Of a DNA stretch of 64,000 nucleotides, positions 2,474 to 59,511 are shown in pieces. The translations under genes were made by a program, and so were the position numbers. Below the pieces are notes generated by a model. The model had not been told where the DNA came from, did not search any database, and was given only the letters and a program-made list of their open reading frames with translations. Source of the DNA: Minisyncoccota bacterium (GTDB lineage Bacteria; Patescibacteriota; Minisyncoccia; Phycocordibacterales; GWA1-40-21); contig JBAYKL010000004.1 in assembly GCA_041664585.1 (NCBI GenBank), positions 19,775-83,774 on the forward strand, read 5' to 3'. Within the stretch, counting starts at the first letter, position 1. Each line of letters opens with the position of its first letter.

Positions 2474-3805
2474 ATGGTTGAAAATAAAACTCTTTGGACG
2501 AATGTGTTGGCTGAAATAGAACTTAGTTTATCTAAAGCTAATTTTAGTATGTGGTTTAAGGATACCTTTATTCTTAAACAAGATGATGGGGTAGTATATC
2601 TTGGTGTACCAAATGTCTTTGTAAAAGATTGGTTATTAAATAAATATCATAAAGATATATTGAAGAACCTCAGGACCTTTGGGGAAAACATTAGAAATGT
2701 TGAATATGTTGTTTCTAAAGAAGAACAAAAAAACATCCTTAAAACACCAACCTTCCATAATCAGCTGCCTCTGAACGATTTTTATATAAACAAGGAAGAC
2801 AATCTTAATCCAAAATATACTTTTGAAACCTTTGTCGTCGGTCCATTCAATGAATTAGCTCACGCAGCTTCTCAAGCGATTCTCAAAAAACAAGCTGCGT
2901 ACAATCCACTCTTTATTTTCGGTAGCACAGGTCACGGAAAGACCCATCTTATACAAGCACTAGGGAACCACTACAAATCGGCAGATCAAAATAAAAAGGT
3001 TTACTACATTACCTCAGAAAAATTTGTTAACGATTACTTAAATTCTCTTAACAATGGAACGGCGAATAATTTTAAAGAGAAATATAGAAAGTATGACATC
3101 CTTATAATAGACGACATACAATTTCTTTCTAAAAAGGATAAGTCTCAGGAGGAGTTTTTCCATTTGTTTAATACACTACACGAAAATAATAAACAACTTA
3201 TACTTTCTTCGGATAAACACCCAAACTTCATCCCTGATATCGAGGAAAGAATAAAATCTAGATTCAATGCCGGTATGATAGTAGAGATACAAAAGCCTGA
3301 TTTTGAGTCTAGAATTCAGATATTTAGTAAGAAATCTTCACTTATAGGACTTTCACTCTCAAACGATATAATAGAGTACCTGGCGGCTTCTGTAGACGGT
3401 AATATAAGGGAATTAGAGGGCATTCTAAACCTCATCCTTTGCCAATCTCAATTAAAAAATAAGGAGATGACACTTAACGAAATAAAAGATTTGGTTAAAA
3501 ATACAACCAAACTAAAGAAAAGTGTTTCTATTAAAGATGTTATTAAAATAATAGCAGAATACTACGGTATAGAAGAGGCTAATATCTATAAGAAAGGGAG
3601 AAAAAAAGAAGTAATTAAACCAAGACAGGTTATAATGTATATATTAAGAGACGATTTTGATATCTCATTCCCTTCAATAGGAGAAAAAGTAGGGAATAGA
3701 GATCACTCAACTGTAATACACTCATACGAAAAGATTAAAAGTGATTTAAAAACCGATCCCGATTTAGCACAAGAGATAAGTCAGATACGTTCGATGTTGA
3801 AATAG
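2474..3805 (+). CDS. dnaA: Chromosomal replication initiator DnaA.
   Basis: 443 aa; Walker A GSTGHGKTHL; AAA+ and C-terminal DNA-binding domain motifs. Confidence 0.95.
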   Translation: MVENKTLWTNVLAEIELSLSKANFSMWFKDTFILKQDDGVVYLGVPNVFVKDWLLNKYHKDILKNLRTFGENIRNVEYVVSKEEQKNILKTPTFHNQLPLNDFYINKEDNLNPKYTFETFVVGPFNELAHAASQAILKKQAAYNPLFIFGSTGHGKTHLIQALGNHYKSADQNKKVYYITSEKFVNDYLNSLNNGTANNFKEKYRKYDILIIDDIQFLSKKDKSQEEFFHLFNTLHENNKQLILSSDKHPNFIPDIEERIKSRFNAGMIVEIQKPDFESRIQIFSKKSSLIGLSLSNDIIEYLAASVDGNIRELEGILNLILCQSQLKNKEMTLNEIKDLVKNTTKLKKSVSIKDVIKIIAEYYGIEEANIYKKGRKKEVIKPRQVIMYILRDDFDISFPSIGEKVGNRDHSTVIHSYEKIKSDLKTDPDLAQEISQIRSMLK

Positions 3806-6043: not shown

Positions 6044-8596
6044 TTATTTGATTTTCAAGTTTATCGTTTTTTCTGATTTATTATAAACCTTGTCTGTAAC
6101 GATTACCTTTAGCTGATTGTCTGTTCCTACAAAATCCTCTGATGACGGTATAAAATTTATTAAGTAAGGTTTATCAGAAGATGATCCTATAAATTGATTA
6201 TTCAGATAGTAGTCTACTTTTGAGATTTGATATGTAGATTGAATTACCGGGATAATATTTATCGTTTGGTCTTTGTTATATTCAGTATTTGTACTCGGTG
6301 ATATTATTTGTACTTTTGGTAAGGTATTCTCTGTGTGCACGTCGTCATAATTTGTTGGTTTTGTAGGAAATGCCATTGGGTTTTTTTCTAACCATTTTTG
6401 CAAACCATACTCCCAGTTTTCAAATTGGTAATCATTGTTTGGGTTTTCTGGAATCGGGCCTAATGGATCTTTTTTATCTACCCAATATAGTATTGAGTGT
6501 ATATTTGGTATTGCTCTTTCTTCTTGTGTTTCTGTTGGTGTCAATTCTGTTGCAAGTTTGCCAGATATTTTATCAATTAGATAGGTATCGTTACCCTGCC
6601 ATATGCCCCCGATTATCGGTTTAAGATCTATAACTGTCTGTTCCTGCGGTTGCTTAAATGATTCTTCGGGTACTGTCTTTAATACCTCGTTCATTACCTC
6701 ATGCCACATTGGCGCGACTATAAGTCCGGCGACTTTCTTCTCCATTGGTGTATTGTCATTATTTCCAGCCCACATGCCGTAAACAATACTTGGAGTATAA
6801 CCAATAATCCAAGCATCTTTGTAGTCGTTCGTTGTACCAGTTTTTGATGCAACAGTTCTGCCAGGGTAGTACATTACTGAGTGATATCCATATGCTGGTA
6901 CCTTAGCTTCGTCATCAGAAAGTATGCTGTTTATTTTTAGTGCACTATCCTCACTTAGTCCGAATCTTGGTTTGGACTCATATTTTTCCAAGACATTTCC
7001 TTTCTGATCTTCAATTGAAATTATTCCAGTATAGGGAAGTCTTGTACCGTTGTTTGCGAATACCCCGTACGCACTTACTTCTTCTAGAAGAGAAACCTCT
7101 CCGCCTCCGAGAACCAGCGTAAGCCCATATCTGTCTGGCTCGGCTAAACTTGTGATACCCATAGACTTTGCTGTTTCTATTGAGTCTTTTATTCCTGCCA
7201 AGTATAGCGTTTTTATTGCGATAATGTTTCTTGATTCAGCAAGGGCGGATCTCAATGTCATTGGACCCTTAAATATATTGTCATAATTGTCTGGCATATA
7301 ACAAGAATTTTCCGGAGTGATTTCTGCCGAAGGGTTTCTTGGTTTACCATCTGGTGTACAAGAGCTTTGAAATTCTGTTTGGGCATCAAACAGAACGGTT
7401 TCTGGTGTATACCCTTTATTGAAAGCTGTGGCGTATACGAATGGTTTAAAGGTTGAACCAGGTTGTCTCAGGGCCAAGGCGATATTATAATTTCCATCTA
7501 TTTCTTTATCAAAATAATCTCTAGAACCAACCATTACTAGTATTTGTCCTGTTTTTGGATCTATGGCTACACCGGCCGCGTTTTCGGCATTAAACTTTTC
7601 CTTGTTTTCTAATGCTCTTTTCTTAATTATCTCCTCCGCTTTTGATTGCAGATCATAATCAAGAGTGGTAATTACTTTATAGCCATTTTCCTGCATTGCA
7701 TTCTCTCCGTATTTTTGTACAAGATATTGTTTTATGAATTCGACAAAGTGCGGAGCTTTAATACCATATTGTTCTCTGGGTATAAAAGTTACATCCTCTT
7801 TTGTTGCAGAATCATACTCATCCTTTGTAATGAAATTATTTTCGAGCATTTTACTTAGAACAAGCTTTTGTCTAATTTTTAACTTTTCTAAGTTTTGCCC
7901 ATATGGAGAATAGAAGGTGGGAGCTTGGGGGATGGCGGCAAGGTATGCTGATTCTGCAAGGGTTACATCTGCAGCACTTTTATTAAAAAATCTTTGCGCT
8001 GCTTCTTCCACGCCATATAGGTTTCCTCCATATGGAGTCTCGTTCAAATAGATAGAGAGGATTTGTTCCTTGCTCATTATTTTTTCTATCTTTAGAGACA
8101 AAACCCACTCTTTGAGCTTTCTAGAAATCTTCTTTTCTGTTGTAAGGAGAGAGTTTTTAATAACCTGTTGGGTAATTGTAGACCCACCTTGTCCATATCC
8201 ACCACTAAGTACATTTGAAAGAACGGCTCTTATAATAGATTTTATTTTTATACCATGATGCTGATAGAATTCGGCGTCTTCTATGGCCACAGTAGCGTTT
8301 TTTACATTTCTGGAAATACTCTCAAAAGAGATTTGGGTTCTCTTCATTTCTTCATGAACATCATATAGAAGTATTTTCCCAGTACGATCGTATATCTTTG
8401 TGGATTGGGCAACTATTCTATTCTCAAAAGAATTTAAATCTGGTATTTGGAAAGTGGATATCCATATAAGTAAGGATCCAGAGACGACAAAAAATAAAGC
8501 GATTAGGAGTAAGAGAACTTTTTTCCAGTGTGTTGTTAAGGTACGAGAGTATTTTTTGGTATGCTTTTTAATATTATGAATGTGTTTTTTGTACAT
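6044..8596 (-). CDS. Class A penicillin-binding protein (bifunctional GT51 transglycosylase / transpeptidase) with a C-terminal extension.
   Basis: 850 aa; N-terminal TM; GT51 motifs (EDAEFYQHHG, GGSTITQQ); SxxK-type transpeptidase region. Confidence 0.85.
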   Translation of the reverse strand: MYKKHIHNIKKHTKKYSRTLTTHWKKVLLLLIALFFVVSGSLLIWISTFQIPDLNSFENRIVAQSTKIYDRTGKILLYDVHEEMKRTQISFESISRNVKNATVAIEDAEFYQHHGIKIKSIIRAVLSNVLSGGYGQGGSTITQQVIKNSLLTTEKKISRKLKEWVLSLKIEKIMSKEQILSIYLNETPYGGNLYGVEEAAQRFFNKSAADVTLAESAYLAAIPQAPTFYSPYGQNLEKLKIRQKLVLSKMLENNFITKDEYDSATKEDVTFIPREQYGIKAPHFVEFIKQYLVQKYGENAMQENGYKVITTLDYDLQSKAEEIIKKRALENKEKFNAENAAGVAIDPKTGQILVMVGSRDYFDKEIDGNYNIALALRQPGSTFKPFVYATAFNKGYTPETVLFDAQTEFQSSCTPDGKPRNPSAEITPENSCYMPDNYDNIFKGPMTLRSALAESRNIIAIKTLYLAGIKDSIETAKSMGITSLAEPDRYGLTLVLGGGEVSLLEEVSAYGVFANNGTRLPYTGIISIEDQKGNVLEKYESKPRFGLSEDSALKINSILSDDEAKVPAYGYHSVMYYPGRTVASKTGTTNDYKDAWIIGYTPSIVYGMWAGNNDNTPMEKKVAGLIVAPMWHEVMNEVLKTVPEESFKQPQEQTVIDLKPIIGGIWQGNDTYLIDKISGKLATELTPTETQEERAIPNIHSILYWVDKKDPLGPIPENPNNDYQFENWEYGLQKWLEKNPMAFPTKPTNYDDVHTENTLPKVQIISPSTNTEYNKDQTINIIPVIQSTYQISKVDYYLNNQFIGSSSDKPYLINFIPSSEDFVGTDNQLKVIVTDKVYNKSEKTINLKIK

Positions 8597-15180: not shown

Positions 15181-15208
15181 TTGACACACAAGCTATCTGT
15201 AGTATAAT
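15181..15208 (+). promoter_or_regulatory. Consensus sigma70 promoter TTGACA-16-TATAAT.
   Basis: -35 at 15181-15186, -10 at 15203-15208. Confidence 0.6.
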
Positions 15209-15251
15209 ACTTGGGAAGGTGGGTTTTGATATCTTAACAAGAAAGGAGATT

Positions 15252-15566
15252 ATGAAAACTACCATTTTGATTGTTTTGTTCTTTGTCTGTGTGACGTTTA
15301 CAGCACAGCAGGCAACTGCTGCTGATGTTCGGTGGGGTGTGTCCATAAGTCCTGGTGTCATTGTTTACGACTCTCCTCAGTATGAGCGTAGGTTGGTCGT
15401 AACCAGAGATTATTACGGCAACGTAATTGAAAGTCATTACGAACTGGTACCTGTGTACATGCCACCTCCGCCCCCGCCGCGTTATTACCCAGTTGTTTAT
15501 CCTTGGTTTACAATTGGTAGTTCGCACCATCATGGTCACCATGGCCATCACGGGGGACATCGCTAA
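15252..15566 (+). CDS. Small secreted Pro/Tyr/His-rich protein A (104 aa precursor with Sec signal peptide, PPPPPP run, C-terminal HHHGHHGHHGGH).
   Basis: Strong RBS aaaggagat 5 nt before ATG 15252; signal peptide MKTTILIVLFFVCVTFTAQQATA. Confidence 0.6.
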   Translation: MKTTILIVLFFVCVTFTAQQATAADVRWGVSISPGVIVYDSPQYERRLVVTRDYYGNVIESHYELVPVYMPPPPPPRYYPVVYPWFTIGSSHHHGHHGHHGGHR

Positions 15567-15584
15567 TTAAGTCGGCTTAGGCCA

Positions 15585-15612
15585 AAAAGCGAGGAAATTC
15601 CTCGCTTTTTTT
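15585..15612 (+). terminator. Terminator gcgaggaaattcctcgc followed by T8.
   Basis: Perfect 6-bp stem and U-run. Confidence 0.7.
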
Positions 15613-15627
15613 ATATCTAAAATATGC

Positions 15628-15655
15628 TTGACAAACATTTCATTTAGTGTATAAT
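15628..15655 (+). promoter_or_regulatory. Consensus sigma70 promoter TTGACA-16-TATAAT for the second small secreted protein.
   Basis: -35 at 15628-15633, -10 at 15650-15655. Confidence 0.6.
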
Positions 15656-15707
15656 GGTATACAAAGGTATTGTTTTCAAGAATCTTAAACAAAAGGAAGG
15701 AGATCTC

Positions 15708-16091
15708 ATGAAAACTGTAAGTTTGTTCATTCTATGCGTGGTGTGCTTTGCTCAGGTGTCTGTCGCTGACGGCTGGAATCTTAATGTTAATTTTCCGCCT
15801 CCGCCGCAGCAACAGGTGATAGTGGTTCGTGAACCCGCACCCCCTCCGGTAGTTATATACCGCGAGGCGCCGCCGGTTGTTATTTACGAACAACCTCGGC
15901 GCTGGGGATATTCCTACGAATATGAATACCAGGCTGGTATATCAATTTCGATAGGGAGTGGCGGAGGTCATTACCCCAGTCATTACAACGACCGTAATCA
16001 TTACGAACGTCGTCGTGGTGGTGACCCGTGGGGATCACACAATGCACCAGTTGATACACCGCATCGTCCAGCTAACAACTGTGCTTGGTAA
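15708..16091 (+). CDS. Small secreted Pro/Tyr/His-rich protein B, a paralog of A (127 aa precursor with PPPP and VVIY repeats, His-rich tail).
   Basis: RBS aaggaaggag; signal peptide MKTVSLFILCVVCFAQVSVA; motifs shared with protein A. Confidence 0.6.
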   Translation: MKTVSLFILCVVCFAQVSVADGWNLNVNFPPPPQQQVIVVREPAPPPVVIYREAPPVVIYEQPRRWGYSYEYEYQAGISISIGSGGGHYPSHYNDRNHYERRRGGDPWGSHNAPVDTPHRPANNCAW

Positions 16092-16107
16092 AGACGAGTC
16101 GGTACGA

Positions 16108-16138
16108 ACGGCGAGGATTAAACCCCTCGCTGTTTTTT
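16108..16138 (+). terminator. Terminator gcgagg-attaaacc-cctcgc followed by a T-run.
   Basis: Read directly. Confidence 0.65.
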
Positions 16139-16174
16139 ATTTCCAAATTTTCTTTTTATGATAATATCTTATTT

Positions 16175-16609
16175 ATGAAGATATTAAGTAAATCTTTAGA
16201 AGATACAGAAAAAATAGCCAAAGATTTTTTGGAGAAACTTGCGCTATCTTCTTTTGAAGAGGCAACTATTGTAGGGCTTTATGGAGACCTTGGGTCAGGG
16301 AAGACCACTTTCACACAATCCATAGCAAAAATATTTGGTATTAAAGAGGATATTACAAGTCCGACTTTTGTTATTGAAAAAATATATTCCTTAGAGAATC
16401 CTTTTTATCATAATCTTATACACATAGACGCATATCGCCTAGAATATACAAAAGAAATGCATGCTCTTGGTTGGGAAAATATTTCTAAAAATCCACATAA
16501 TATTATATTTATAGAATGGCCAGAAAGAGTAATAGACGCTTTGCCAGAAAATCATTTGAAAATAAACTTTAAATTTGTTTCGGAGAATGAGAGGGAGATA
16601 GAGATTTAA
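16175..16609 (+). CDS. tsaE: tRNA threonylcarbamoyladenosine biosynthesis ATPase TsaE. The start was trimmed to MKILSKS.
   Basis: 144 aa; P-loop GDLGSGKTTF typical of TsaE/YjeE. Confidence 0.75.
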   Translation: MKILSKSLEDTEKIAKDFLEKLALSSFEEATIVGLYGDLGSGKTTFTQSIAKIFGIKEDITSPTFVIEKIYSLENPFYHNLIHIDAYRLEYTKEMHALGWENISKNPHNIIFIEWPERVIDALPENHLKINFKFVSENEREIEI

Positions 16610-16649
16610 TTATCCACATCTTGCCAAGGTGCTAGGGGGGGGCTATAAT
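16610..16649 (+). promoter_or_regulatory. Promoter TTGCCA-17-TATAAT for the 16657 gene. A G8 homopolymer (16635-16642) lies inside the spacer and a perfect DnaA box TTATCCACA (16610-16618) abuts the -35.
   Basis: -35 at 16621-16626, -10 at 16644-16649. The ATG is 7 nt downstream, so the mRNA is leaderless. Confidence 0.5.
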
Positions 16650-16656
16650 AGTAGAA

Positions 16657-18891
16657 ATGAAATTCAAACAATTTCTAATTTCTGCTGGTATTGTTCTAAT
16701 ATCCATTTTTGTCATTGTCGGTATTGTTTCTGCCACTCACAATCTATATTCTTCCAAACAAACATCAGAATCTACTTTCCACTCTCTAAATGATATATAC
16801 AATCTAATAATGTCAGGAACAGAGAAGGCAACTCCCGATAGCCTAACCTCCACATCTGTTTCTCCCACAGCAACCACCTCACATTCCATAGGAGAGATCT
16901 ACACCATATTAGCTAATATAAAGGTAAACAAAGCTACTTCTACATACAGCTCACTTACTCCAACATCTGCACCAGGAGGTACAGGTTATACCCTAGAAGA
17001 CATATGGAATTTAATAAACAACTCTACATATGCTGCAGAAGGTAATCATGATATTACAAAAGCAACTACTCCTTCTGCTTCTATGCATACTACCTCAGAC
17101 ATATATACATATTTAAATGATACATTTAAGGTAAATCTTGCATTGAATAAGGTAAGAAGTGGAGCATACTATTTTGGTAACTCAAACCCTGGTACCTTTG
17201 TCATAGCTAATCTCGGTGAATACTGTGAGGCTAATGATGAGTGTAATACAAACTACTGTGGGGATGATAGTTGGTATGGCTGGCAGACTGGGACTACGCA
17301 ATGTACTACAGGGGAAATCGGATCAGTTTGTAATAATGCGAATCAGTGTTCTACAAATATTTGTGGTTATGGGCAATGTTCTGATGGTGCTGTGGGGAGG
17401 GGGTGTGATAGTGATAGTCAGTGTACATTAGGGCATTGTGATACAGCGGTTACAGGTTCTTGCACAGATGGAAATATTGGTTCAGATTGTGACTCTAATG
17501 CAGATTGTTCTACAGGATTATATTGTGGGGATACACAATGGATGTATAGTTCACCAGCGTGTACCGACGGTTCCGCAGGTCAATACTGTGGAGGACCAGA
17601 TTCATGTGCTCCAGGGAATTATTGTAATTATAATGATTATACTTGTACTGCTACTGATGGGGAAATAGGGTCAGGGTGTGGACAGAATTCTGATTGCGGC
17701 TCTGGATATTGTGATCAGTATAATAGTTATACTTGTACTAACGGAGGAGTTGGAGTTGGTTGCAGTGCTGGTAATCAATGCTCCTCAGGGTATTGTAATA
17801 CTGATTTCAATGAATGTTCTACCGGACAAATAGGTGCACCTTGTGGAGCGACTGGAGACTGTATATCTACTTACTGTGGATATGATTTCAGTCAAGCTTC
17901 TTCTTTCTGTACTAACGGAGGTATTGGAGAAGGTTGTAGTTATAATGCAGCTTGTGTTTCTGGATATTGTGACGTCTTTAATTCCCAATGTTCTGATGGA
18001 AGTATAGGGTCTGGGTGTACGAATAATAATCAGTGCTCTTCAAACCTATGTAGTTCTGTGGTCAATGAATGTATTAGTGGAGATATTGGTTCTTCTTGTA
18101 CTGTTGGGCAGGAATGCGATTCAACCTATTGTGATACCTTTAATGGTATATGTAAGACTGATGGGGCTATTGGAAGTGCCTGCGGATTACATTCTGAATG
18201 TGATTCTGAATTCTGCTCAAGTAATGTTTGTACTGCAGCAACTCTAACATCTAGACTTTCCGCCTATTGGAATTTTAATGAAACTTCTGGAACAGCAGCT
18301 AGCGATTCTTCTGGGAATGGAAAGGTTGGAGTTCTTGTAAGCGGCGTATTAGTAAATCAAACTGGTAAGTTGGGGACAGGTTTCAGATTTGATGGGACAA
18401 ATGACGTCGTCACAGTAAACAACATTGACATTAAAGATTCCTCATTTACATTTTCTGTCTGGGTTGCGAATACAAAGGCTGGTAATAGCTCTCCATTTTC
18501 TATGGGCTCTTCTGGCACCACGAATGGTTATCTATGGATAAGAAAAGTTACTACTACTAATAAAGTGGGATTTGGTTTCCATAATTATGGAACTTATGTA
18601 AATAGTAATAATAGTATGAGTACTAATGGTACTTGGGAGCACTGGGTCTTTGTGTATAAGCTTGGAGTAGGTAAAAAAATATATAAGAACGGTGTTCTTG
18701 ATATAACTGATTCTAATACACAAGCATTCAAATACCCAAGTGGGCAATTAAGAATAGGACATTCTTTTGATGCTGGACAATATCTTGGTGGAACAATGGA
18801 CGAAATCGGATTATGGAACCGCGCACTTACTGCAGACGAAGTCACTCAACTCTATAATGGAGGTGCTGGACTTGGTTACTCATCTTTCTAA
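16657..18891 (+). CDS. Large secreted surface protein, paralog 1. Domain order: signal peptide, three S/T-rich approx 40-aa repeats, about 11 tandem 4-Cys repeats (C-x-DG-x-IGS-x-C...C-S-G-x-C), C-terminal LamG/ConA-like lectin domain.
   Basis: 744 aa; repeat periodicity read from the translation; LamG_3-like motifs (LSAYWNFNETSG...GLWNRALTADEV). Confidence 0.7.
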   Translation: MKFKQFLISAGIVLISIFVIVGIVSATHNLYSSKQTSESTFHSLNDIYNLIMSGTEKATPDSLTSTSVSPTATTSHSIGEIYTILANIKVNKATSTYSSLTPTSAPGGTGYTLEDIWNLINNSTYAAEGNHDITKATTPSASMHTTSDIYTYLNDTFKVNLALNKVRSGAYYFGNSNPGTFVIANLGEYCEANDECNTNYCGDDSWYGWQTGTTQCTTGEIGSVCNNANQCSTNICGYGQCSDGAVGRGCDSDSQCTLGHCDTAVTGSCTDGNIGSDCDSNADCSTGLYCGDTQWMYSSPACTDGSAGQYCGGPDSCAPGNYCNYNDYTCTATDGEIGSGCGQNSDCGSGYCDQYNSYTCTNGGVGVGCSAGNQCSSGYCNTDFNECSTGQIGAPCGATGDCISTYCGYDFSQASSFCTNGGIGEGCSYNAACVSGYCDVFNSQCSDGSIGSGCTNNNQCSSNLCSSVVNECISGDIGSSCTVGQECDSTYCDTFNGICKTDGAIGSACGLHSECDSEFCSSNVCTAATLTSRLSAYWNFNETSGTAASDSSGNGKVGVLVSGVLVNQTGKLGTGFRFDGTNDVVTVNNIDIKDSSFTFSVWVANTKAGNSSPFSMGSSGTTNGYLWIRKVTTTNKVGFGFHNYGTYVNSNNSMSTNGTWEHWVFVYKLGVGKKIYKNGVLDITDSNTQAFKYPSGQLRIGHSFDAGQYLGGTMDEIGLWNRALTADEVTQLYNGGAGLGYSSF

Positions 18892-18954: not shown

Positions 18955-21330
18955 ATGGAAAAGAAAAAAACACTTGTACTGCTTGATGTTCATGCAATTG
19001 TTCATCGTGCATATCATGCACTTCCAGATTTTGCTACAAGTAGTGGAGAGCCAACAGGTGCACTATACGGACTTTCCACAATGCTATTAAAAATTATCTC
19101 TGATTTAAAACCGGATTATATTATTGCATGTTACGATTTACCAAAACCAACTTACAGACATGAAGCTTACAAAGAATATAAGGCGGGGAGAGCAAAGTCC
19201 GATGACGAACTTGTTTCTCAATTAAAAAAGTCTTACGAAATATTCAAGGCTTTTAATATTCCTGTATATTCCAAAGAAGGTTTTGAAGCAGATGATATGA
19301 TCGGAACTATAGTAGAGAATAATAAAAAAGAGAAAAATATAAATATAGTGATTGCTTCTGGAGACATGGATACTCTTCAGCTTGTAGAAGGGGACAAGGT
19401 GAGAGTATATACTTTGAAGAAGGGAATTAAAGATACAATTATTTATAACGAAGAAGCTGTAAAAGAAAGATTTGGTTTTGGTCCAGAACTCCTACCAGAT
19501 TACAAAGGCCTTCGTGGAGATCCGTCCGATAACATTATTGGTATAAAAGGGATTGGGGAAAAAACTGCCACAGATTTAATAATAAATTTTGGTTCCATAG
19601 AAAATATTTATAAAGCGATCAAGAAGGATAAGAATAAACTTTTAGAAGCCGGAATAAAAACAAGAATTATAGATTTACTTGTAGAAGGGGAGGAAGAAGC
19701 AAATTTTTCAAAAATGTTGGGGACAATAAGGCGTGATGCACCAATAGATTTTGCGCTACCAGAAAAAGAATGGAAAGAAGATATAAATATAGAAAACATA
19801 AGTAATTTGTGGTCATCTCTTGAATTCAGAACTCTTGGCGCAAGACTGAAAGATGTTTTGATAAATAAAATGAAAAAGGAAGGTGTAGTTGAAGAAGAAA
19901 AAATCAGTATAAAAGAAACCGATACTAACACTGAAGAAATAAAAGAACTTTCTATAATCCTTTGGCTTATAAATTCCAACATCACAACCCCTACGTTAGA
20001 AGATATTTTTAATTTCACTAGAACAAAATCTTTAGAAGACGCAAAAAAAGTTTTGTATGAAGAATTAGAAAAAAGAAATCTCGGAAAAGTATGGAACGAT
20101 ATAGAGAAACCTATTTTACCTATTGTTATCCAAATGCAAAATAAAGGCGTAAAGATTAATAAAGAAGAATTACAAAAACTTTCAGTAAAATATCATGAAA
20201 GCTTGGATAAATTGCAAAGCAAAATATGGGAATATGCCGGACAGGAGTTTAACGTAAACTCTCCTAAACAGCTTGGTGAAATTCTTTTTGTGAAGCTTGA
20301 ACTTAAGCCTAAGAATCAGAAAAAGACAGGCGCAGGGGCACTTTCTACGAAAGAATCAGAGCTTGAAAAGATGAGAGATATGCACCCCATAATCCCTTTA
20401 ATTTTTGAGTACAGAGAATTACAGAAGTTACTTTCTACCTACATAGATGTTATTCCTACACTTTTAGATGATAACAATAGACTTCATGCAAAATTCTTGC
20501 AGGCGGGAACCACCACAGGACGTATGGCTTCTTCAGAACCAAATTTGCAGAATATTCCAAATGGTAGTGAGCTTGGGAGGAATATAAGAAAAGCTTTTAT
20601 AACAGAGAAAGGTTATAAGCTAGTGGCTTTTGATTATTCTCAGGTTGAGCTTAGGATTGCAGCTTTTCTTTCAAAGGATAAAACACTGTTAGAAATCTTT
20701 AGAAAGGGAGAAGATGTACATACTGCTGTTGCAGCAAAAGTTTTTAATGTTTCTCTTGAAGATGTAGATAAAGAAATGAGAAGAAAAGCTAAGGTGATTA
20801 ACTTTGGAATCATATATGGTATGGGAGTGAATGCTTTGAAAACAAATCTTGGTACAAGTAGGGAAGAGGCTCAGCTTTTCTATAATGAATACTTTAGAAA
20901 TTTTGATGGTTTGGCTAAATATTTAGAGAATGTAAAGATTGATGCTGAGAGACTTGGATATACAGAAACTTTTTTTGGTAGAAGAAGATATTTTGAAGGA
21001 TTAAGATCTAAAGTTCCTTTTATTAAAGCGATGGCTGAAAGAATGGCGATAAATGCACCGATACAGGGAACAGAAGCAGATGTTGTGAAGATCGCTATGG
21101 CTAAAGTAAATGATTATTTAGAAAAGGAAAGGTTAAAAGAAAAAGTTTCTCTTATCCTCCAAGTACACGATGAACTTGTTTATGAAATAGAAGATAGTTT
21201 AGTAGAAAAAGTCGCACCGAAAATAAAAGAAATAATGGAGACGCTAGTTTCTCCAAAAGAAACAGAAGGCGTTGCTTTAAAGGTTGGCGTGTCAGTAGGG
21301 GATGATTGGAAGAGCATGAAGGGAATATAA
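18955..21330 (+). CDS. polA: DNA polymerase I (5'-3' exonuclease + polymerase; apparently lacking a functional 3'-5' exonuclease domain, Taq-like length).
   Basis: 791 aa; motif B RRKAKVINFGIIYG; motif C QVHDELVYE; extended -10 TGCTATAAT sits 6 nt before the ATG, so the mRNA is leaderless. Confidence 0.9.
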   Translation: MEKKKTLVLLDVHAIVHRAYHALPDFATSSGEPTGALYGLSTMLLKIISDLKPDYIIACYDLPKPTYRHEAYKEYKAGRAKSDDELVSQLKKSYEIFKAFNIPVYSKEGFEADDMIGTIVENNKKEKNINIVIASGDMDTLQLVEGDKVRVYTLKKGIKDTIIYNEEAVKERFGFGPELLPDYKGLRGDPSDNIIGIKGIGEKTATDLIINFGSIENIYKAIKKDKNKLLEAGIKTRIIDLLVEGEEEANFSKMLGTIRRDAPIDFALPEKEWKEDINIENISNLWSSLEFRTLGARLKDVLINKMKKEGVVEEEKISIKETDTNTEEIKELSIILWLINSNITTPTLEDIFNFTRTKSLEDAKKVLYEELEKRNLGKVWNDIEKPILPIVIQMQNKGVKINKEELQKLSVKYHESLDKLQSKIWEYAGQEFNVNSPKQLGEILFVKLELKPKNQKKTGAGALSTKESELEKMRDMHPIIPLIFEYRELQKLLSTYIDVIPTLLDDNNRLHAKFLQAGTTTGRMASSEPNLQNIPNGSELGRNIRKAFITEKGYKLVAFDYSQVELRIAAFLSKDKTLLEIFRKGEDVHTAVAAKVFNVSLEDVDKEMRRKAKVINFGIIYGMGVNALKTNLGTSREEAQLFYNEYFRNFDGLAKYLENVKIDAERLGYTETFFGRRRYFEGLRSKVPFIKAMAERMAINAPIQGTEADVVKIAMAKVNDYLEKERLKEKVSLILQVHDELVYEIEDSLVEKVAPKIKEIMETLVSPKETEGVALKVGVSVGDDWKSMKGI

Positions 21331-24553: not shown

Positions 24554-27500
24554 ATGAAATTAAGATCAAAATTAATTTTAATATCTCTTGTTTCGTTGTC
24601 TTTTTGTTTTGTTTCTTCTGTTTTTGCTGCCGGTTGTGGAAAGGAATATTCATCAGAAGGGGATTACTATTATCAGTGTGATGGAACTCAGGTTACACAA
24701 ACGGCTGTTGTAATGTTCGGAGATATTATAGATAATTTTACGAATTCATCGACTACGGCTTCTTGGAGGTTTTATGATGGTGTAAACAAAAGAGAAGCTT
24801 TTTATACAACGGTTTTACCGCCGTTAAACGTTAGTTTAGTCATCTCCTCTAGTAGAACCGACTATGATATATTTACCGCTGCTGGCTCGCCCACATTTCC
24901 TGTAAACATTACTTTAACTATTGCTTCTGGAACGGTGGTATCTTCTACTAGAAGTGATAGGGGAGCAATTTATGGTAGTCAAAATCTACCAGCGGGATCT
25001 ATTGTTTCTATAATAAATAACGGAGCTATTATTGGAAGAGGAGGAGACGGAGGTGGAGCTGCTGGTCCAAATTGGCTTACAAATGGTGTTGGTTCACAAA
25101 ACGGTGGATCTGCTATTTCGTTAGTTGCTAATTCTAGTATTGTCACAAATAATGGGAAAATTTATGGCGGAGGAGGCGGAGGTGGCTATTGTCCTAAGGG
25201 AGGTCCAATTGGTGTGTATTATCCTGGTGATCCTGTTTATGTTTGGGGAGGTGCTGGAGGCGGAGCAGGAGGTAGCTCTGGTGGTCACGGATCATGCGGT
25301 TATGCACAAGGTGGTACTTCTGGAATAAACGGTACTCCAGGTAATGGTATTACGTGTAGCGGTAAGGGTGGCGGTGCCGGAGGTTCTTATGGTTCTCCTG
25401 GGGTTGTAGCTACTTGTACGGCCGGTCAAGATTACTGGATGGGCCCAGCTGCCGGAGGTAACTCTATATTAACTAGTAATTTTGATTTATGTATTGATGG
25501 AAACTCTTCTAGTACTGTAAAAGGGGATATTAGTAGTGCTTATAATGTAAGTTGTCCTTTTACTAAAGCACCGCTTCCTACCGTTACAATTTCAGCTACT
25601 CCTAACCCAGTAGTTTATGGTAACTCTAGCGTCGTAACATGGTCTTCGACAAACACTGTGTCGTGCTCTGCGGTGGATGGATGGGCTACCTCTAGCTCAA
25701 TAAGCGGATCTGCAAATATTAATATCTTGAGATTGAATAAAAGTTTTACGATATCTTGTGTAACAAATAATGGAACTATTACTTATGCAACTACTACGGT
25801 ACAGGTAAGCCCCGCTCCACCTACGTCCCAGAGGATGATAAATTCTGGTCTTATCGGATACTGGCCCTTTGATGAAGCGTCTGGATCAAAAGCAGTAGAT
25901 TATTCTGTTAATGGTAATGATGGAAATATTCTCAATGGGGTTTCAATAAATCAGCCTGGTAAAATTGGAAGAGCTTATGGTTTTGATGGTGTTGATGATA
26001 TTGTTAACCTTGGCAATTTTGATTCATATCTTGTTGGTAAAGAAAATTTATCTTTTTCTGCTTGGATAAAAGGAGATACTTTTAATACTAATAAAACTAT
26101 TTTATCAAACACACTTGATGGTGCTGCACAGTTAGAATTTTATATTAACCCAACAAGTATATCTTTTTGTGACTATACCAATGGGGTGCCAAATGGTTGG
26201 TGTCCAGGTGTTTTTAATCAAAGTCTTAGTTTAAGTAGTTGGCATCTTCTAGTTGCTGTATTTCGTCCTGGCACGGTTGAACTTTTTGTTGATGGTGTGT
26301 CTGTCGGTAGTAAATCTGTATCTGGTGCAACAGCGAGACAGTCTGGTTCAAATGCCAAGAATCTTATAATTGGTGGGAGGTCTGTTGCTAGTTATATGAA
26401 TAAGTGGGACGGCATGATAGATGAGGTGGCTATTTGGGATAGGCCTCTTTCAAGCCAGGATGTTTTTGATTTGTATAATGGTGGTCAAGGTATGAGCTTA
26501 ATCAATTCTTGTCCTTCTGGGGAAGAATATATTTATACTGGTAGCTATGATGTTCCACCTTCAACATATGATATTCCTGATACTATGAATTGTGGATGTG
26601 GAGATGATTCAAATTCTTGTGGTTGTGGTGATTCTTACTCTTGCCCATGTGGTGATTCAAATAGTTGCCCTTGCGGGGATGATTCAATGTCTTGTGAGTG
26701 TGGAGACGATTCTTATTCTTGCAGTTGTGGAGATTATGGATGTGAAATCTGGGAAGGTTCATATGATTGTGCGTGTGGTAATGAAATTTATCTTCCAGAA
26801 GAATGGGGTTATTGTTGTGAAGACTTGGTGCCAGACACAATGTCTTGTGAGTGTGGGGACGATTCTTATTCTTGTGGATATTGGGGAGACGAGCCTTGCG
26901 GCGATGATTCCTATTCTTGTGCCTGTGGCGATGAATACTGGGAGCCATACGAATGTTTATGTAGTATGGAATATTATGAGCCTGATACTATGGATTGTTA
27001 TTGTGGAGATCAGGAGGTTTGTGTCGTTGATAACAATAATTGTTCTTGTGGAGACTCTTACTCTTGCGCGTGTGGTAACGATTCTAATTCTTGTCCGTGT
27101 GGCGGAGACCTAAATTCTTGTTTTTGTGGAGATGATCCTTACACTTGCGGTTGCGGAGATGAAACGATGTCTTGTCTTTGTGATAACGCTTATAGTACAT
27201 ATGTTCCAGGATGGACTGAATACACTGGACGTTGTGTCCCGACAGATACTTTAGAAACCTTTATTGTGTCCCCAAGTGAAGTTCTTCCTGACAATAAATT
27301 TAATTTAAGTTATCGTACAAGCAACTTCAACCCTGGGGATACTTGCGTTGCTTCTGGTGGTTATGGTTGGTCTGGAACCCTCAATACAAATCCGACTATA
27401 CAGATAGAGGTTGGACCAATACCGACAAGCAAGACTTTTAATTTGATTTGTACTAGGGCCTCAGATAGCAAAACCGCTTCCGATTCAAAAACTATTAATC

Positions 27501-27847
27501 TAATTACACAACAACCAAATCATCTTACTTATACGGAAGAGGATGGTGTGGTGTGTAGTGTTGAGCAAGCAGGTAGAAATGGAAAGATATATGTAAACAA
27601 AAATACCATTTGGACATTAAATTCCCCAGTGGATTTATTAAACTATTCTATATCTACAGAATGGTTTGGTGATGGTATTAATACAATAACGAACTCTACG
27701 AGTACGTCTAAAATTTATACAACCGTTGGTCTTAAAAAAATAGCAGCCACTACAACTGCGACTAAGATTGGAGGAACCACCTACTATCTTATTTGTTCTA
27801 CCTCTACAAATGTTATTTTAGGTAACGATCTTATAAAGGAGATTTAG
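24554..27847 (+). CDS. Giant secreted surface protein (1097 aa). Domain order: signal peptide, Gly-rich low-complexity region, LamG/ConA-like domain, array of Cys-rich C-x-C-G-D-(D/S)-S-x-S mini-repeats, Ig-like C-terminal region.
   Basis: Signal peptide MKLRSKLILISLVSLSFCFVSSVFA; LamG motifs (GYWPFDEASG...AIWDRPLSSQDV) shared with the 16657 and 35864 proteins. Confidence 0.7.
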   Translation: MKLRSKLILISLVSLSFCFVSSVFAAGCGKEYSSEGDYYYQCDGTQVTQTAVVMFGDIIDNFTNSSTTASWRFYDGVNKREAFYTTVLPPLNVSLVISSSRTDYDIFTAAGSPTFPVNITLTIASGTVVSSTRSDRGAIYGSQNLPAGSIVSIINNGAIIGRGGDGGGAAGPNWLTNGVGSQNGGSAISLVANSSIVTNNGKIYGGGGGGGYCPKGGPIGVYYPGDPVYVWGGAGGGAGGSSGGHGSCGYAQGGTSGINGTPGNGITCSGKGGGAGGSYGSPGVVATCTAGQDYWMGPAAGGNSILTSNFDLCIDGNSSSTVKGDISSAYNVSCPFTKAPLPTVTISATPNPVVYGNSSVVTWSSTNTVSCSAVDGWATSSSISGSANINILRLNKSFTISCVTNNGTITYATTTVQVSPAPPTSQRMINSGLIGYWPFDEASGSKAVDYSVNGNDGNILNGVSINQPGKIGRAYGFDGVDDIVNLGNFDSYLVGKENLSFSAWIKGDTFNTNKTILSNTLDGAAQLEFYINPTSISFCDYTNGVPNGWCPGVFNQSLSLSSWHLLVAVFRPGTVELFVDGVSVGSKSVSGATARQSGSNAKNLIIGGRSVASYMNKWDGMIDEVAIWDRPLSSQDVFDLYNGGQGMSLINSCPSGEEYIYTGSYDVPPSTYDIPDTMNCGCGDDSNSCGCGDSYSCPCGDSNSCPCGDDSMSCECGDDSYSCSCGDYGCEIWEGSYDCACGNEIYLPEEWGYCCEDLVPDTMSCECGDDSYSCGYWGDEPCGDDSYSCACGDEYWEPYECLCSMEYYEPDTMDCYCGDQEVCVVDNNNCSCGDSYSCACGNDSNSCPCGGDLNSCFCGDDPYTCGCGDETMSCLCDNAYSTYVPGWTEYTGRCVPTDTLETFIVSPSEVLPDNKFNLSYRTSNFNPGDTCVASGGYGWSGTLNTNPTIQIEVGPIPTSKTFNLICTRASDSKTASDSKTINLITQQPNHLTYTEEDGVVCSVEQAGRNGKIYVNKNTIWTLNSPVDLLNYSISTEWFGDGINTITNSTSTSKIYTTVGLKKIAATTTATKIGGTTYYLICSTSTNVILGNDLIKEI
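26583..27180 (+). repeat. Imperfect tandem DNA repeats with a 24/27-bp period (TGYnnnTGYGGnGAYkmnwmyTCT) encoding about 20 CxCGDDSxS units. They include a nested ~35-bp duplicate (26687-26722 and 26837-26876).
   Basis: Periodicity visible in both the nucleotide sequence and the translation. Confidence 0.7.
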
Positions 27848-43209: not shown

Positions 43210-43836
43210 ATGAAAAAGGGATTATTTATAGTAATTGATAGCGGCGAAGGAGCTGGAAAGACTTCACAATTAAACCGTGCCAAGGAGATTTACGGTGACT
43301 CGCTGGTTTTAACTAGAGAACCAGGTGGTTCACCTTATGCTGAAGAGATTCGTCATATAATATTAAAATCTCCTTATGCAGCACAGGCAGATGCAAAAAC
43401 TTTGTTTGCTTTGTTTTGGGCAGCAAGAGCTGATCATTTAAAAAATACCGTTATCCCAGCATTAGAATCTGGGAAGACAGTAATATCTGATCGGTTTGAT
43501 TCGTCAACTTTTGCTTATCAAATTATTGCTCAGGGCGCCAAAGAATTGAAAGATTTTTTTTGGCAGATGCGAGATTTCTATCTCGGCGATCTCAAACCAG
43601 ATCTCTATATATACTTTGATATTGATCCAGTTATAGGGTTATCTCGCAAAAATAATCAGGGGGCAGATGAACGTAATCATTTCGAAGATCGAGAGATCGA
43701 ATTTCACAAAAAACTTCGGGAGGGTTACAAAGAGTTTATTACCCATGTTCCCCATGCTGTGATTGATGCTAGTCAACCAATCGATAAGGTCTGGGATGAT
43801 TTTAGATTAGTTTTAGAAAAATCTTTTGGGAACTAG
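43210..43836 (+). CDS. tmk: Thymidylate kinase.
   Basis: P-loop DSGEGAGKTSQ; TREPGG motif. Confidence 0.9.
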   Translation: MKKGLFIVIDSGEGAGKTSQLNRAKEIYGDSLVLTREPGGSPYAEEIRHIILKSPYAAQADAKTLFALFWAARADHLKNTVIPALESGKTVISDRFDSSTFAYQIIAQGAKELKDFFWQMRDFYLGDLKPDLYIYFDIDPVIGLSRKNNQGADERNHFEDREIEFHKKLREGYKEFITHVPHAVIDASQPIDKVWDDFRLVLEKSFGN

Positions 43837-59091: not shown

Positions 59092-59511
59092 ATGCAGGCT
59101 AGGATTGCTAAGTTTAGTGCTTATTGGGATACAGAGGGGTTCAGACCAGATTTGGCCGTCACGAATGTCACTAGATTCTTGGTCGGCTGTGAAATTGTCG
59201 TCTTACCTTGCGGAGCTTTGTTTTTAAGCAAGGGAGTTGGTAATAAATATCCGACTTCGATTTTCCAGATAGACCTTAGCATCGAGACAAACGAGACTTT
59301 CTTTACGAGGTTTAGCGATATCGTCACTTTTGACGATGGCGGTTTTTTTACCTCATGCAAATCTTACAGCATCGGTGGTGTGGAGGCTGTAATTTATGGA
59401 GTGGATGGGGATTATCGTATGTTCGCAAATCGCTACGGCCATTTGTGTATCAAGAAAGTCCCAGGGGATCCAGGGGAGATAATGTTCAAACCAGATTTCC
59501 CAGTCACTTAA
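59092..59511 (+). CDS. Hypothetical protein (139 aa) with GC content higher than its neighbours (~45%).
   Basis: RBS aggaggg 7 nt upstream; own terminator at 59523-59549. Confidence 0.45.
   Translation: MQARIAKFSAYWDTEGFRPDLAVTNVTRFLVGCEIVVLPCGALFLSKGVGNKYPTSIFQIDLSIETNETFFTRFSDIVTFDDGGFFTSCKSYSIGGVEAVIYGVDGDYRMFANRYGHLCIKKVPGDPGEIMFKPDFPVT

Follow-up and report, generated by a model that had tools for sequence, protein, structure and literature searches.

The 64,000-nucleotide stretch studied here (the window: positions 19,775 to 83,774 of the forward strand of contig JBAYKL010000004.1, from the Minisyncoccota bacterium assembly GCA_041664585.1) carries, beside pilB, two small plus-strand genes, g1 (15252-15566, a 104-residue precursor) and g2 (15708-16091, a 127-residue precursor). 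Judged from their sequences, both are real genes and independent single-gene transcription units, and their Pro/Tyr/His-rich products are predicted to be exported and are probably very highly expressed. The two genes share one design, and together with related genes in other genomes they define two families and a modular islet of four cassettes, which evolves at 7-40 times the rate of the flanking genes. The best explanation that we can offer for them, put forward tentatively, is that their products are envelope proteins, abundant and for the most part disordered, whose His tails respond to metal or pH.

Expression and export signals

From the sequence, it is clear that each gene is equipped with a complete set of its own expression signals. 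The promoters (15181-15208 for g1 and 15628-15655 for g2, both on the plus strand) match TTGACA-16-TATAAT at 12 of 12 positions, and a pattern search of both strands found these two as the only such sites in the 64 kb, where 0.11 would be expected by chance and where none of 100 shuffles contained two or more. A Shine-Dalgarno (SD) sequence, AAGGAG, lies 3 nt ahead of the g1 ATG (15243-15248) and 5 nt ahead of the g2 ATG (15697-15702); about four of the 58 open reading frames (ORFs) of the window have an SD of at least 6 nt, the other two being thymidylate kinase (at 43210) and an orphan (at 59092). Both genes end in an intrinsic terminator with the same GCGAGG/CCTCGC stem followed by a T run, at 15584-15617 for g1 (hairpin 15584-15610, −16.6 kcal/mol, z = −3.9) and at 16106-16143 for g2 (hairpin 16106-16135, −17.6 kcal/mol, z = −3.2). 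The consensus promoter, strong SD and dedicated GC-hairpin terminator that the initial annotation had listed for each gene were thus all found. As for the very high expression that it predicted, the exceptional signals are indeed present, and the level itself is derived from these signals alone.

The genome otherwise looks largely leaderless and SD-less. A TATAAT-like hexamer (at least five of six matches) ends 4-14 nt before 25 of the 58 ORF starts of the window, seven of them exact, as compared with 5 of 58 (one exact) at a control offset 60 nt upstream, and much of the genome therefore seems to be based on leaderless mRNA; a literature search found no paper joining Patescibacteria, leaderless and Shine-Dalgarno. 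No other genes in the 64 kb of this mostly SD-less genome have transcription and translation signals as strong as those of g1 and g2, and their products therefore probably rank among the extracytoplasmic proteins of highest abundance in what is a very small cell.

Where the promoters and SDs lie, together with the conserved family start MKTT, also makes the 104- and 127-residue gene models of the initial annotation the best ones. On these grounds longer and shorter start codons for both genes were rejected, as was an antisense ORF of 108 residues (15234-15560). A 145-residue version of g2 proposed by another gene caller starts at an ATG (15654) upstream of the predicted transcription start, and the 89-residue NCBI model (P0002) begins only at an internal GTG, so that the signal peptide is lost. 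Two annotation errors can thus be flagged: g2 is truncated in the NCBI record, and the exact 104-residue g1 sequence (identical protein P0001) is listed from JGI and Logan sources only, with no entry from NCBI. Local G+C over the two genes reaches 49-53% because of their Pro/Tyr/His-rich composition.

Sec-exported, signal peptidase I-cleaved proteins are marked by a basic n-region, a hydrophobic region of 10-17 residues and small residues at −3 and −1, and both precursors fit this description, in agreement with the signal peptides noted earlier. In g1 the signal peptide (MKTTILIVLFFVCVTFTAQQATA, followed by AD; residues 1-23, 15252-15320) has K2, a hydrophobic core from I5 to F16 and, by sequence inspection, a predicted cleavage site between A-T-A and A. 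In g2 (MKTVSLFILCVVCFAQVSVA, followed by DG; residues 1-20, 15708-15767) the corresponding features are K2, a core from L6 to F14 and a cleavage site, again predicted by inspection, between S-V-A and D. AlphaFold2 models residues 2-22 of g1 as a helix, and in the seven-member family alignment the Ala at −1 and the following Trp are invariant. Thus, both proteins can be taken as exported on these sequence features. A lipobox ([LVI][ASTVI][GAS]C at the end of the hydrophobic region) is absent, as the Cys contexts are FFVC in g1 and FILC/CVVC in g2, with V or L rather than G, A or S before the Cys. Neither N terminus has the class III signal of type IV pilins, that is, a short basic leader, cleavage between G and F/M, a hydrophobic helix and Glu at +5 (motif G-F/M-T-L-x-E).

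The composition of both mature proteins is extreme when compared with the other 56 ORFs of the window. His makes up 11% of g1 and 4.7% of g2 (1.3% elsewhere), Pro 14% and 15% (3.4%), and Tyr 11% and 8% (3.6%), and the polyproline runs, VV(I/Y)Y motifs and His-rich ends are present as first described. The hexaproline run of g1 (residues 71-76, 15462-15479) is confined to the allele of this genome, the other family members having Y/P-rich sequence in its place, and the g1 His/Gly tail, SSHHHGHHGHHGGHR (15519-15563), is 53% His. In g2, a Pro-rich region with VVIY repeats (residues 29-63, 15792-15896) is followed by a Gly/His/Tyr/Arg-rich tail (15957-16088). Apart from M70 of g1, the mature proteins contain no Met. 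Neither the His tail nor the VVIY repeats are built on tandem repeats in the DNA, and variation by slippage is therefore not supported.

In addition to the signal-peptide helix, AlphaFold2 confidently modelled a single element of g1, one long β-hairpin (residues 43-68, 15378-15455, QYERRLVVTRDYYGNVIESHYELVPV), which is also the best-conserved block of the family. Alignments of three and of seven sequences agree on it, with predicted local distance difference test (pLDDT) values of 80-96 for the block and a model mean of 62. Outside the helix and the hairpin (residues 22-39 and 76-104) pLDDT is below 50, for 49 of the 104 residues, which suggests that g1 is largely disordered. A Foldseek search with the model against PDB gave no match at E ≤ 0.001, as expected for a single hairpin with a mean pLDDT of 62. 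A hairpin by itself is no stable fold, and it may point to self-association or to β-augmentation onto a partner.

Small, Sec-exported and fast-changing proteins with such strong expression signals could also be secreted membrane-active or antimicrobial peptides, similar to histatins or proline-rich antimicrobial peptides, directed against competitors or used to leak nutrients from a host. Their His/Arg/Tyr/Gly-rich tails would suit such a role, being basic in several g1-type family members (tail isoelectric point, pI, 8.6-10.6). However, the mature proteins are near neutral (pI 7.3 for g1 and 6.6 for g2), most members have a conserved hairpin core that is neutral to acidic, an amphipathic helix is missing, and the genes lie among housekeeping neighbours with no adjacent immunity gene. 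We consider an antimicrobial role quite unlikely.

Two small families in a hypervariable islet

Word-indexed searches of 5.8 × 10^9 proteins with g1 and with g2 returned only g1 and g2 themselves, and relatives surfaced only through a two-sequence profile followed by an exhaustive profile search. The latter, with g1 and two orthologs against 1.84 billion representative proteins (E ≤ 0.001), gave 12 matches: the three query sequences, five additional small proteins of 105-133 residues (P0005, P0006, P0007, P0009 and P0010) and four giant repeat proteins. E values of the small-protein matches (P0003, P0004, P0005, P0006, P0007, P0009 and P0010) ranged from 4 × 10^−55 to 2 × 10^−6. On this sequence evidence the small g1-type set is a previously undescribed family of about eight proteins. 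The profile searches that had been called for connected neither protein with a characterised family in Pfam, NCBIfam, PDB sequences or phage records. No Pfam or NCBIfam match was found for g1 or g2 at E thresholds from 1 to 10, Rfam and phage tblastn searches gave nothing meaningful, and the PDB sequence search retrieved only His-tag artefacts (His-tagged nanobodies). Literature searches found nothing on His-rich secreted proteins in Candidate Phyla Radiation (CPR) bacteria. The organism itself, judged by the name that NCBI gives for P0002, is a CPR bacterium of Candidatus Paceibacterota.

The g1-type proteins, labelled type b below, share a common layout. A signal peptide starting MKTT is followed directly past the cleavage site by a Trp motif (W-x-I-S-I), then by the hairpin block P-Q-Y-E-x-R-x-V-P-V-Y-D-x-x-G-N-...-V-x-V-G-Y-x-Y-P, a Tyr/Pro-rich stretch, a WF[ST][IF]G motif and a disordered, His/Arg/Asp/Tyr/Gly-rich C-terminal tail. 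We defined the family by the signal peptide, a Trp within five residues of the cleavage site, the hairpin (in looser form PQYExRxVxVxDxxGN...VxVxY), WF[ST][IF]G and the His-rich tail, all of which g1 has. In the family alignment (A4) W28, P42, G56, V66, Y69, Y78 and F86 are invariant. The tails barely align, although all eight are rich in His (17-53%).

The giant matches share only one hairpin with the family. HYR-type repeats make up P0008, P0011 and P0012; in Pfam, P0011 and P0012 fall under HYR_4C (PF23237) and P0013 has no HYR_4C match, and P0008, which was not Pfam-scanned, repeats the HYR-type hairpin motif. The g1-family hairpin (R-x-V-P-V-Y-D-x-C-G-N-F-x-G-Y...Q-x-V-x-V) resembles the last hairpin of the HYR_4C repeat of giant adhesins (TRTYxVTDxCGNFxxVxQxIxV), and this resemblance explains why P0008, P0011 and P0012 were drawn into the search. 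Only about 25-35 of the ~73 residues of HYR_4C match, however, and the four-Cys pattern and the rest of the immunoglobulin-like domain are absent from the g1 family. Membership was rejected, since none of the seven aligned A4 members matches HYR_4C even at E ≤ 10, leaving a shared motif only. The Y-D-x-x-G-N/R of the g1 hairpin, which we took to be similar to RHS/YD repeats, was rejected likewise, as there is no Pfam match at E ≤ 10 and each protein has one hairpin.

With PilB as a handle, one close relative was found among GTDB species genomes (L002; PilB 88% and TsaE 97% identical), and a JGI metagenome scan gave no further close relatives, the best PilB there being 66% identical and on a short contig. 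The gap between pilB and tsaE in L002 holds four small genes, labelled a to d: a 56-residue lipoprotein whose lipobox is VSGC and which has PVVI repeats and ends in the tail YHYHNQYHYYRYY (a), the g1 ortholog with 114 residues and 40% identity to g1 (b), a 148-residue lipoprotein (c), and the g2 ortholog with 170 residues, 35% identity and a signal anchor (d). The same four-cassette arrangement is present in L163/L164 and in L169, and its a-b part lies on the short contig L162. Relatives stem from Logan run SRR24319184 and from JGI 3300010355, 3300025855 and 3300042261, and the contig of the window itself also occurs in Logan run SRR6484324 and in JGI records. The window has b (g1) and d (g2) only, so that the number of cassettes varies from two to four across genomes. 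Across the relatives (L002 1391-3427, L163 1500-3553 and L169 4657-6401), type a proteins are lipoproteins of 56-62 residues that contain PxPVVI repeats and have a tail extremely rich in Tyr and His (such as YYYHQYHYYYWE), and type c proteins are lipoproteins of 131-148 residues with a conserved GHPPPNY motif and no Pfam, NCBIfam or PDB relatives; the lipoboxes of both are VSGC or ASGC. The Pro-rich/VVIY region of g2 resembles the type a lipoproteins at the motif level (50% identity over 30 residues, E = 0.005).

Nearly every cassette in L002, L163 and L169 has its own 12/12 TTGACA-16/17-TATAAT promoter, SD and terminator. The g1 promoter is conserved in the orthologous cassettes of L002, L162, L163 and L169, and its A-rich untranslated region (UTR; TTAACAAGAAAGGAGA..ATGAAAACTAC) is kept even in the distant members L166 and L167. 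Upstream of g2, the sequence tatatctaaaatatgcTTGACAAACA...GTGTATAAT matches the type c promoter context, and the g2 UTR and start resemble those of type d; we infer from this combination that cassette c was lost from the window genome through recombination between near-identical promoters. In L162 (1082-1507; Logan SRR24319184), the g1 ortholog shifts frame just past the WF motif, and an alternative frame restores a His-rich tail (GSSGHSSHHDYDRDDHRDYPRGRNDDRHHK, then a stop) that ends right before the terminator; the shift may be genuine, as a frameshift or pseudogene, or may come from faulty assembly.

Type d was defined by an N-terminal export or anchor segment, P-A-P-x-V-I-V, a Tyr/Gly-rich stretch, GGxWGSxNAPVxTP close to the C terminus and a position just upstream of tsaE. 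The g2 protein has these features, with its GGxWGSxNAPVxTP motif at 16017-16061, and it matches L002 by tblastn with E = 2 × 10^−5 at the syntenic position; G105, W108, S110, N112, A113 and V115 are invariant in the corresponding alignment (A5). It is nevertheless a divergent member, having a short cleavable signal peptide instead of the longer, uncleaved-looking signal anchor seen in L002, L163 and L169, and lacking the terminal PPGCGxNTQGC of the other type d proteins.

The initial annotation took g1 and g2 for a tandem pair of paralogs. Recent tandem duplication is not borne out, as the mature parts are not significantly similar and each gene has syntenic orthologs of its own, in b and in d, respectively. 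The signal peptides alone align by BLASTP (E = 0.002 in a single comparison), and when the DNA of both cassettes is aligned, conservation is seen in the promoter hexamers, in the SD with the start and in the terminator, and not in the mature coding parts. Paralogy in a looser sense is weakly supported, and an ancient common origin is possible. That the two are divergent paralogs from tandem duplication of one ancestral gene, with one shared function, would account for the same cassette design, the MKT start, the identical terminator stems and the similar A-rich UTRs. It would also account for a collinear score of 18.2 bits for g2 against the g1-family hidden Markov model (HMM), a score that only two in 1000 shuffles attained when the mature part was shuffled at constant composition behind an unchanged signal peptide (p ~ 0.002), the collinear elements being a W past the cleavage site, VVIY strands, ISISIGSGGGH against WFTIGSSGxHH, and an H/Y/D/R tail. 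On the other hand, hhalign of the two family profiles gives a probability of 14% over 11 columns, and g2 is clearly the ortholog of the type d proteins of L002, L163 and L169, which have a signal anchor and another C-terminal motif and do not match the type b HMM at E ≤ 1. The g2 promoter is c-like and its UTR d-like, neither being g1-like. Divergence from one duplicated gene is therefore an improbable account of the pair.

The pilB-tsaE islet is hypervariable between conserved housekeeping genes. Cassette proteins are 35-61% identical between genomes in which the flanking proteins are 88-98% identical. Between the window and L002, the nonsynonymous (dN) and synonymous (dS) divergences are 0.08 and 1.23 for pilB and 0.018 and 0.55 for tsaE, as compared with a dN of 0.58 for g1 and 0.72 for g2 with dS saturated. 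In the closest available pair, L002 and L162, they are 0.014 and 0.31 for pilB, 0.30 and 0.95 for a, and 0.32 and 1.09 for b. Cassette dN is 7-40 times that of the flanking genes and roughly equals their synonymous rate, and dS is also raised, to about three times the flank value in the closest pair; alleles may possibly be exchanged. Within cassettes dN/dS is 0.2-0.3, an estimate that rests on 54-170 codons and is partly saturated, and positive selection is not claimed.

Since frames, signal peptides and invariant residues are retained, dN/dS is low and the regulatory DNA is conserved, the cassettes are best read from their sequences as functional genes under weak or compositional constraint and not as decaying ORFs. 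Extreme divergence, low complexity, the tiny taxonomic range (12 matches in 1.84 × 10^9 proteins) and the frameshift ahead of the tail in the L162 ortholog could also be expected of functionless or selfish young ORFs drifting behind strong promoters. However, six genomes or more have retained the open frames, the signal peptides and the motifs at dN 0.3-0.9, the seven A4 residues from W28 to F86 do not vary, and dN/dS stays well below 1. In addition, the promoter, SD, signal peptide and terminator, as well as the non-coding promoter/UTR/terminator segments, retain about 76-79% nucleotide identity, no less than the 75% of pilB coding DNA. An origin as drifting, functionless ORFs is therefore very hard to credit.

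Proposed function and known systems

In the explanation that we tentatively favour, the cell would produce both proteins at very high levels, Sec would export them and signal peptidase I would cleave them, and outside the membrane, in or on the wall, they would act as envelope or surface-associated proteins that are abundant and for the most part disordered. Self-association, or binding to the wall, would depend on the hairpin and the aromatic/Pro-rich segments. In the His-rich tails, divalent transition metals (Zn, Ni, Cu) would be coordinated reversibly, or charge would change with pH, and this chemistry could serve high-capacity metal buffering or capture, or the cross-linking of a surface layer. 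Selection would act mainly on composition and a few motifs, which would explain why the sequences turn over so fast. Since His-richness is conserved in all eight g1-type tails, a role connected with metal or pH is plausible. The setting is also that of the envelope, as the neighbouring cassettes of the relatives encode lipoproteins or a signal-anchored protein, and a LamG surface protein is encoded past tsaE.

Several observations weigh against this explanation. The g1 protein has no recognisable anchor (lipobox, transmembrane segment or LPXTG-like signal), and in a single-membrane cell it might therefore diffuse away. No metal transporter, sensor or efflux genes lie nearby, the neighbours being RuvC, YebC, RuvB, PilB, TsaE and PolA. 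Consensus promoters with no obvious operator are unlike those of typical metal-induced genes, the g2 tail is only 11% His, and Arg/Asp/Tyr-rich tails would suit polyanion binding or self-association equally well.

The main rival is that the islet encodes a surface coat, adhesin or effector set facing a host cell or phages, shaped by diversifying or frequency-dependent selection and recombinational allele exchange, with a composition that serves adhesion or coacervate-like self-assembly. CPR bacteria are commonly episymbionts, and the rapid divergence from the flanks and the varying cassette content both fit this idea. So does the raised dS of the closest pair, which would be consistent with imported or long-maintained alleles, and one of the nearby genes, that of the LamG/Cys-rich surface protein, has a promoter containing a G8 tract. 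However, dN/dS within cassettes, although estimated from few and partly saturated codons, is not above 1, disordered low-complexity proteins evolve fast even in the absence of positive selection, and a host or partner is not known. A coat explains the turnover better than the metal- or pH-responsive envelope proteins that we favour, but it leaves the conserved His-richness to be explained. We regard it as possible, though the less probable of the two; a metal buffer and a surface coat are in any case not mutually exclusive. A bolder form, which we think unlikely, would make the islet the principal locus for the surface coat of an ultra-small episymbiont, with two to four cassettes, each maximally expressed on its own, whose tiny, disordered His/Tyr/Pro-rich products form a condensate-like coat, and with alleles replaced under diversifying selection by host or phage. 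If that were true, the coat would be assembled through hairpin stacking and metal-His or Tyr interactions, and alleles swapped between strains would set partner or phage specificity.

Returning to the metal- or pH-responsive envelope proteins, several known systems invite comparison. HypB, UreE, SlyD and Hpn are Ni/Zn-handling proteins with His-rich tails or loops, and runs like HHHGHHGHHGGH are the classic composition of low-affinity, high-capacity Ni/Zn sites that are disordered in the apo form. Plant extensins, the Bacillus spore-coat proteins CotG, CotC and CotU, and the His/Tyr-rich adhesives of mussels and worms are Pro/Tyr/His/Gly-rich extracellular structural proteins. By analogy, g1 and g2 resemble this second group in their low-complexity Pro/Tyr/His/Arg sequence, extracytoplasmic location, high predicted expression and rapid evolution, and such structural proteins function through composition-driven self-assembly or cross-linking. 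However, g1 and g2 are not homologous to them and are much smaller, and no enzymes for cross-linking were identified in their surroundings.

The periplasmic Zn protein PA4063 has disordered His-rich loops (PMC8561739). In this protein as in HypB, UreE, SlyD and Hpn, the His segments are appended to folded, functionally defined domains, mostly of cytoplasmic proteins, whereas the sole folded element predicted for g1 is a single hairpin, and the protein is probably exported. Periplasmic metal 'sponges' of the SilE/PcoE type, which in function are the closest analogues of g1 and g2 beside His-rich loops or tails such as those of PA4063, are small and intrinsically disordered (SilE: PMC5008109, PMC10407283). 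Like the sponges, g1 and g2 are small, Sec-exported, rich in metal-ligand residues and, by prediction, largely disordered. SilE and PcoE are thought to act stoichiometrically and thus to require high abundance, and the expression signals of g1 and g2 are comparable in this sense. There is, however, no sequence relationship (Pfam, NCBIfam and PDB searches were negative), and the g1/g2 bacterium differs from SilE/PcoE hosts in having no outer membrane. SilE has His/Met motifs, a metal-efflux operon and metal control, whereas g1 and g2 have no Met motifs and are found with consensus promoters among housekeeping neighbours. Thus, neither sequence, nor His/Met motifs, nor a metal-efflux operon places them with SilE/PcoE.

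The DELD family of the eukaryotic symbiont Piriformospora indica consists of His/Ala-rich small secreted effectors (PMC3192844). Both g1/g2 and DELD proteins are lineage-specific, small, secreted, His-rich and fast-evolving, and the DELD organism depends on a partner. They are non-homologous and come from different domains of life, and the g1/g2 bacterium has no known partner. Taken together, the g1 and g2 families, although new and very small, belong to a general type that is well known, that of lineage-specific, abundant, low-complexity exported proteins. CPR/Patescibacteria form a large share of bacterial diversity, and their envelope and partner-interaction biology is carried mostly by unannotated small proteins. 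If g1 and g2 were merely metal-buffering or structural filler, they would be a routine addition to the catalogue of orphan secreted proteins.

Genomic surroundings

The gene order around the pair is TyrRS, RuvC, YebC, RuvB, PilB, then g1 and g2, then TsaE, the LamG/Cys-rich surface protein, PolA, trigger factor and NusA, and it is kept in L169. The initial annotation placed the pair between pilB and the surface-protein gene; it does lie next to pilB, but tsaE (16175-16609) separates g2 from the LamG gene. Genes of the g1/g2 type adjoin pilB and are transcribed divergently from it in the window, L002, L162, L163 and L169. The link to pilB or to the Cys-repeat protein that had been raised is, however, one of clade-level synteny only. 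The most distant g1-type genes, those of P0007 and P0009, sit between rpsR and efp with no pilB nearby; each has its own terminator, and one has an 11/12 promoter. The g1-type cassette is therefore autonomous and not tied to pilB, tsaE or the Cys-repeat protein.

The position beside pilB could also mean that the tails bind extracellular nucleic acid and cooperate with the neighbouring PilB ATPase when DNA is taken up by way of the pilus. Arg/His/Tyr-rich tails do occur in some members, and among 80 pilB loci small P/Y/H/G/W-rich secreted ORFs were found upstream of pilB in six cases and downstream in one. This enrichment is small, however, and the ORFs in question are not detectably homologous to g1 or g2. 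The P0007 and P0009 loci are likewise at odds with such a role, neither protein of the window has a prepilin signal, and the net charge of the g1 tail is +1 apart from His. A role in DNA uptake is thus highly improbable, and a general linkage of P/Y/H-rich small secreted ORFs to pilB was rejected as a functional link, given the non-homologous ORFs and the distant g1-type genes elsewhere.

Further small envelope proteins with Y/P/W-rich cores and H/R/D-rich tails were seen in Moranbacteria and other Paceibacteria loci (L068 4225-4476, L069 4006-4242, L078 4005-4367, L075 3236-3658, L074 11379-11792 and L076 1715-2302). They are small lipoproteins or secreted proteins with core motifs such as PPPVVYY, GVWFPWG and YWEWRGPYYPGW, and none has detectable homology to g1 or g2. 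Small envelope proteins defined by their composition thus seem to be common in these lineages.

Elsewhere in the window, DnaA and a class A penicillin-binding protein (transglycosylase and transpeptidase) are encoded early in the window, at 2474-3805 and 6044-8596; the region therefore lies near the replication origin, and the organism makes peptidoglycan. The LamG/Cys-rich surface-protein gene (16657-18891) has the promoter TTGCCA-17-TATAAT (16621-16659) with the G8 tract (16635-16642) inside its spacer and a −10 hexamer that ends 7 nt before the ATG, making it a candidate leaderless promoter that is phase-variable through its spacer length. A second large LamG-domain protein of 1097 residues (24554-27847) shows a sub-threshold Pfam match to the Gp38 region of a phage tail-fibre adhesin (E = 1 × 10^−4; 22.7 bits against a cut-off of 25).

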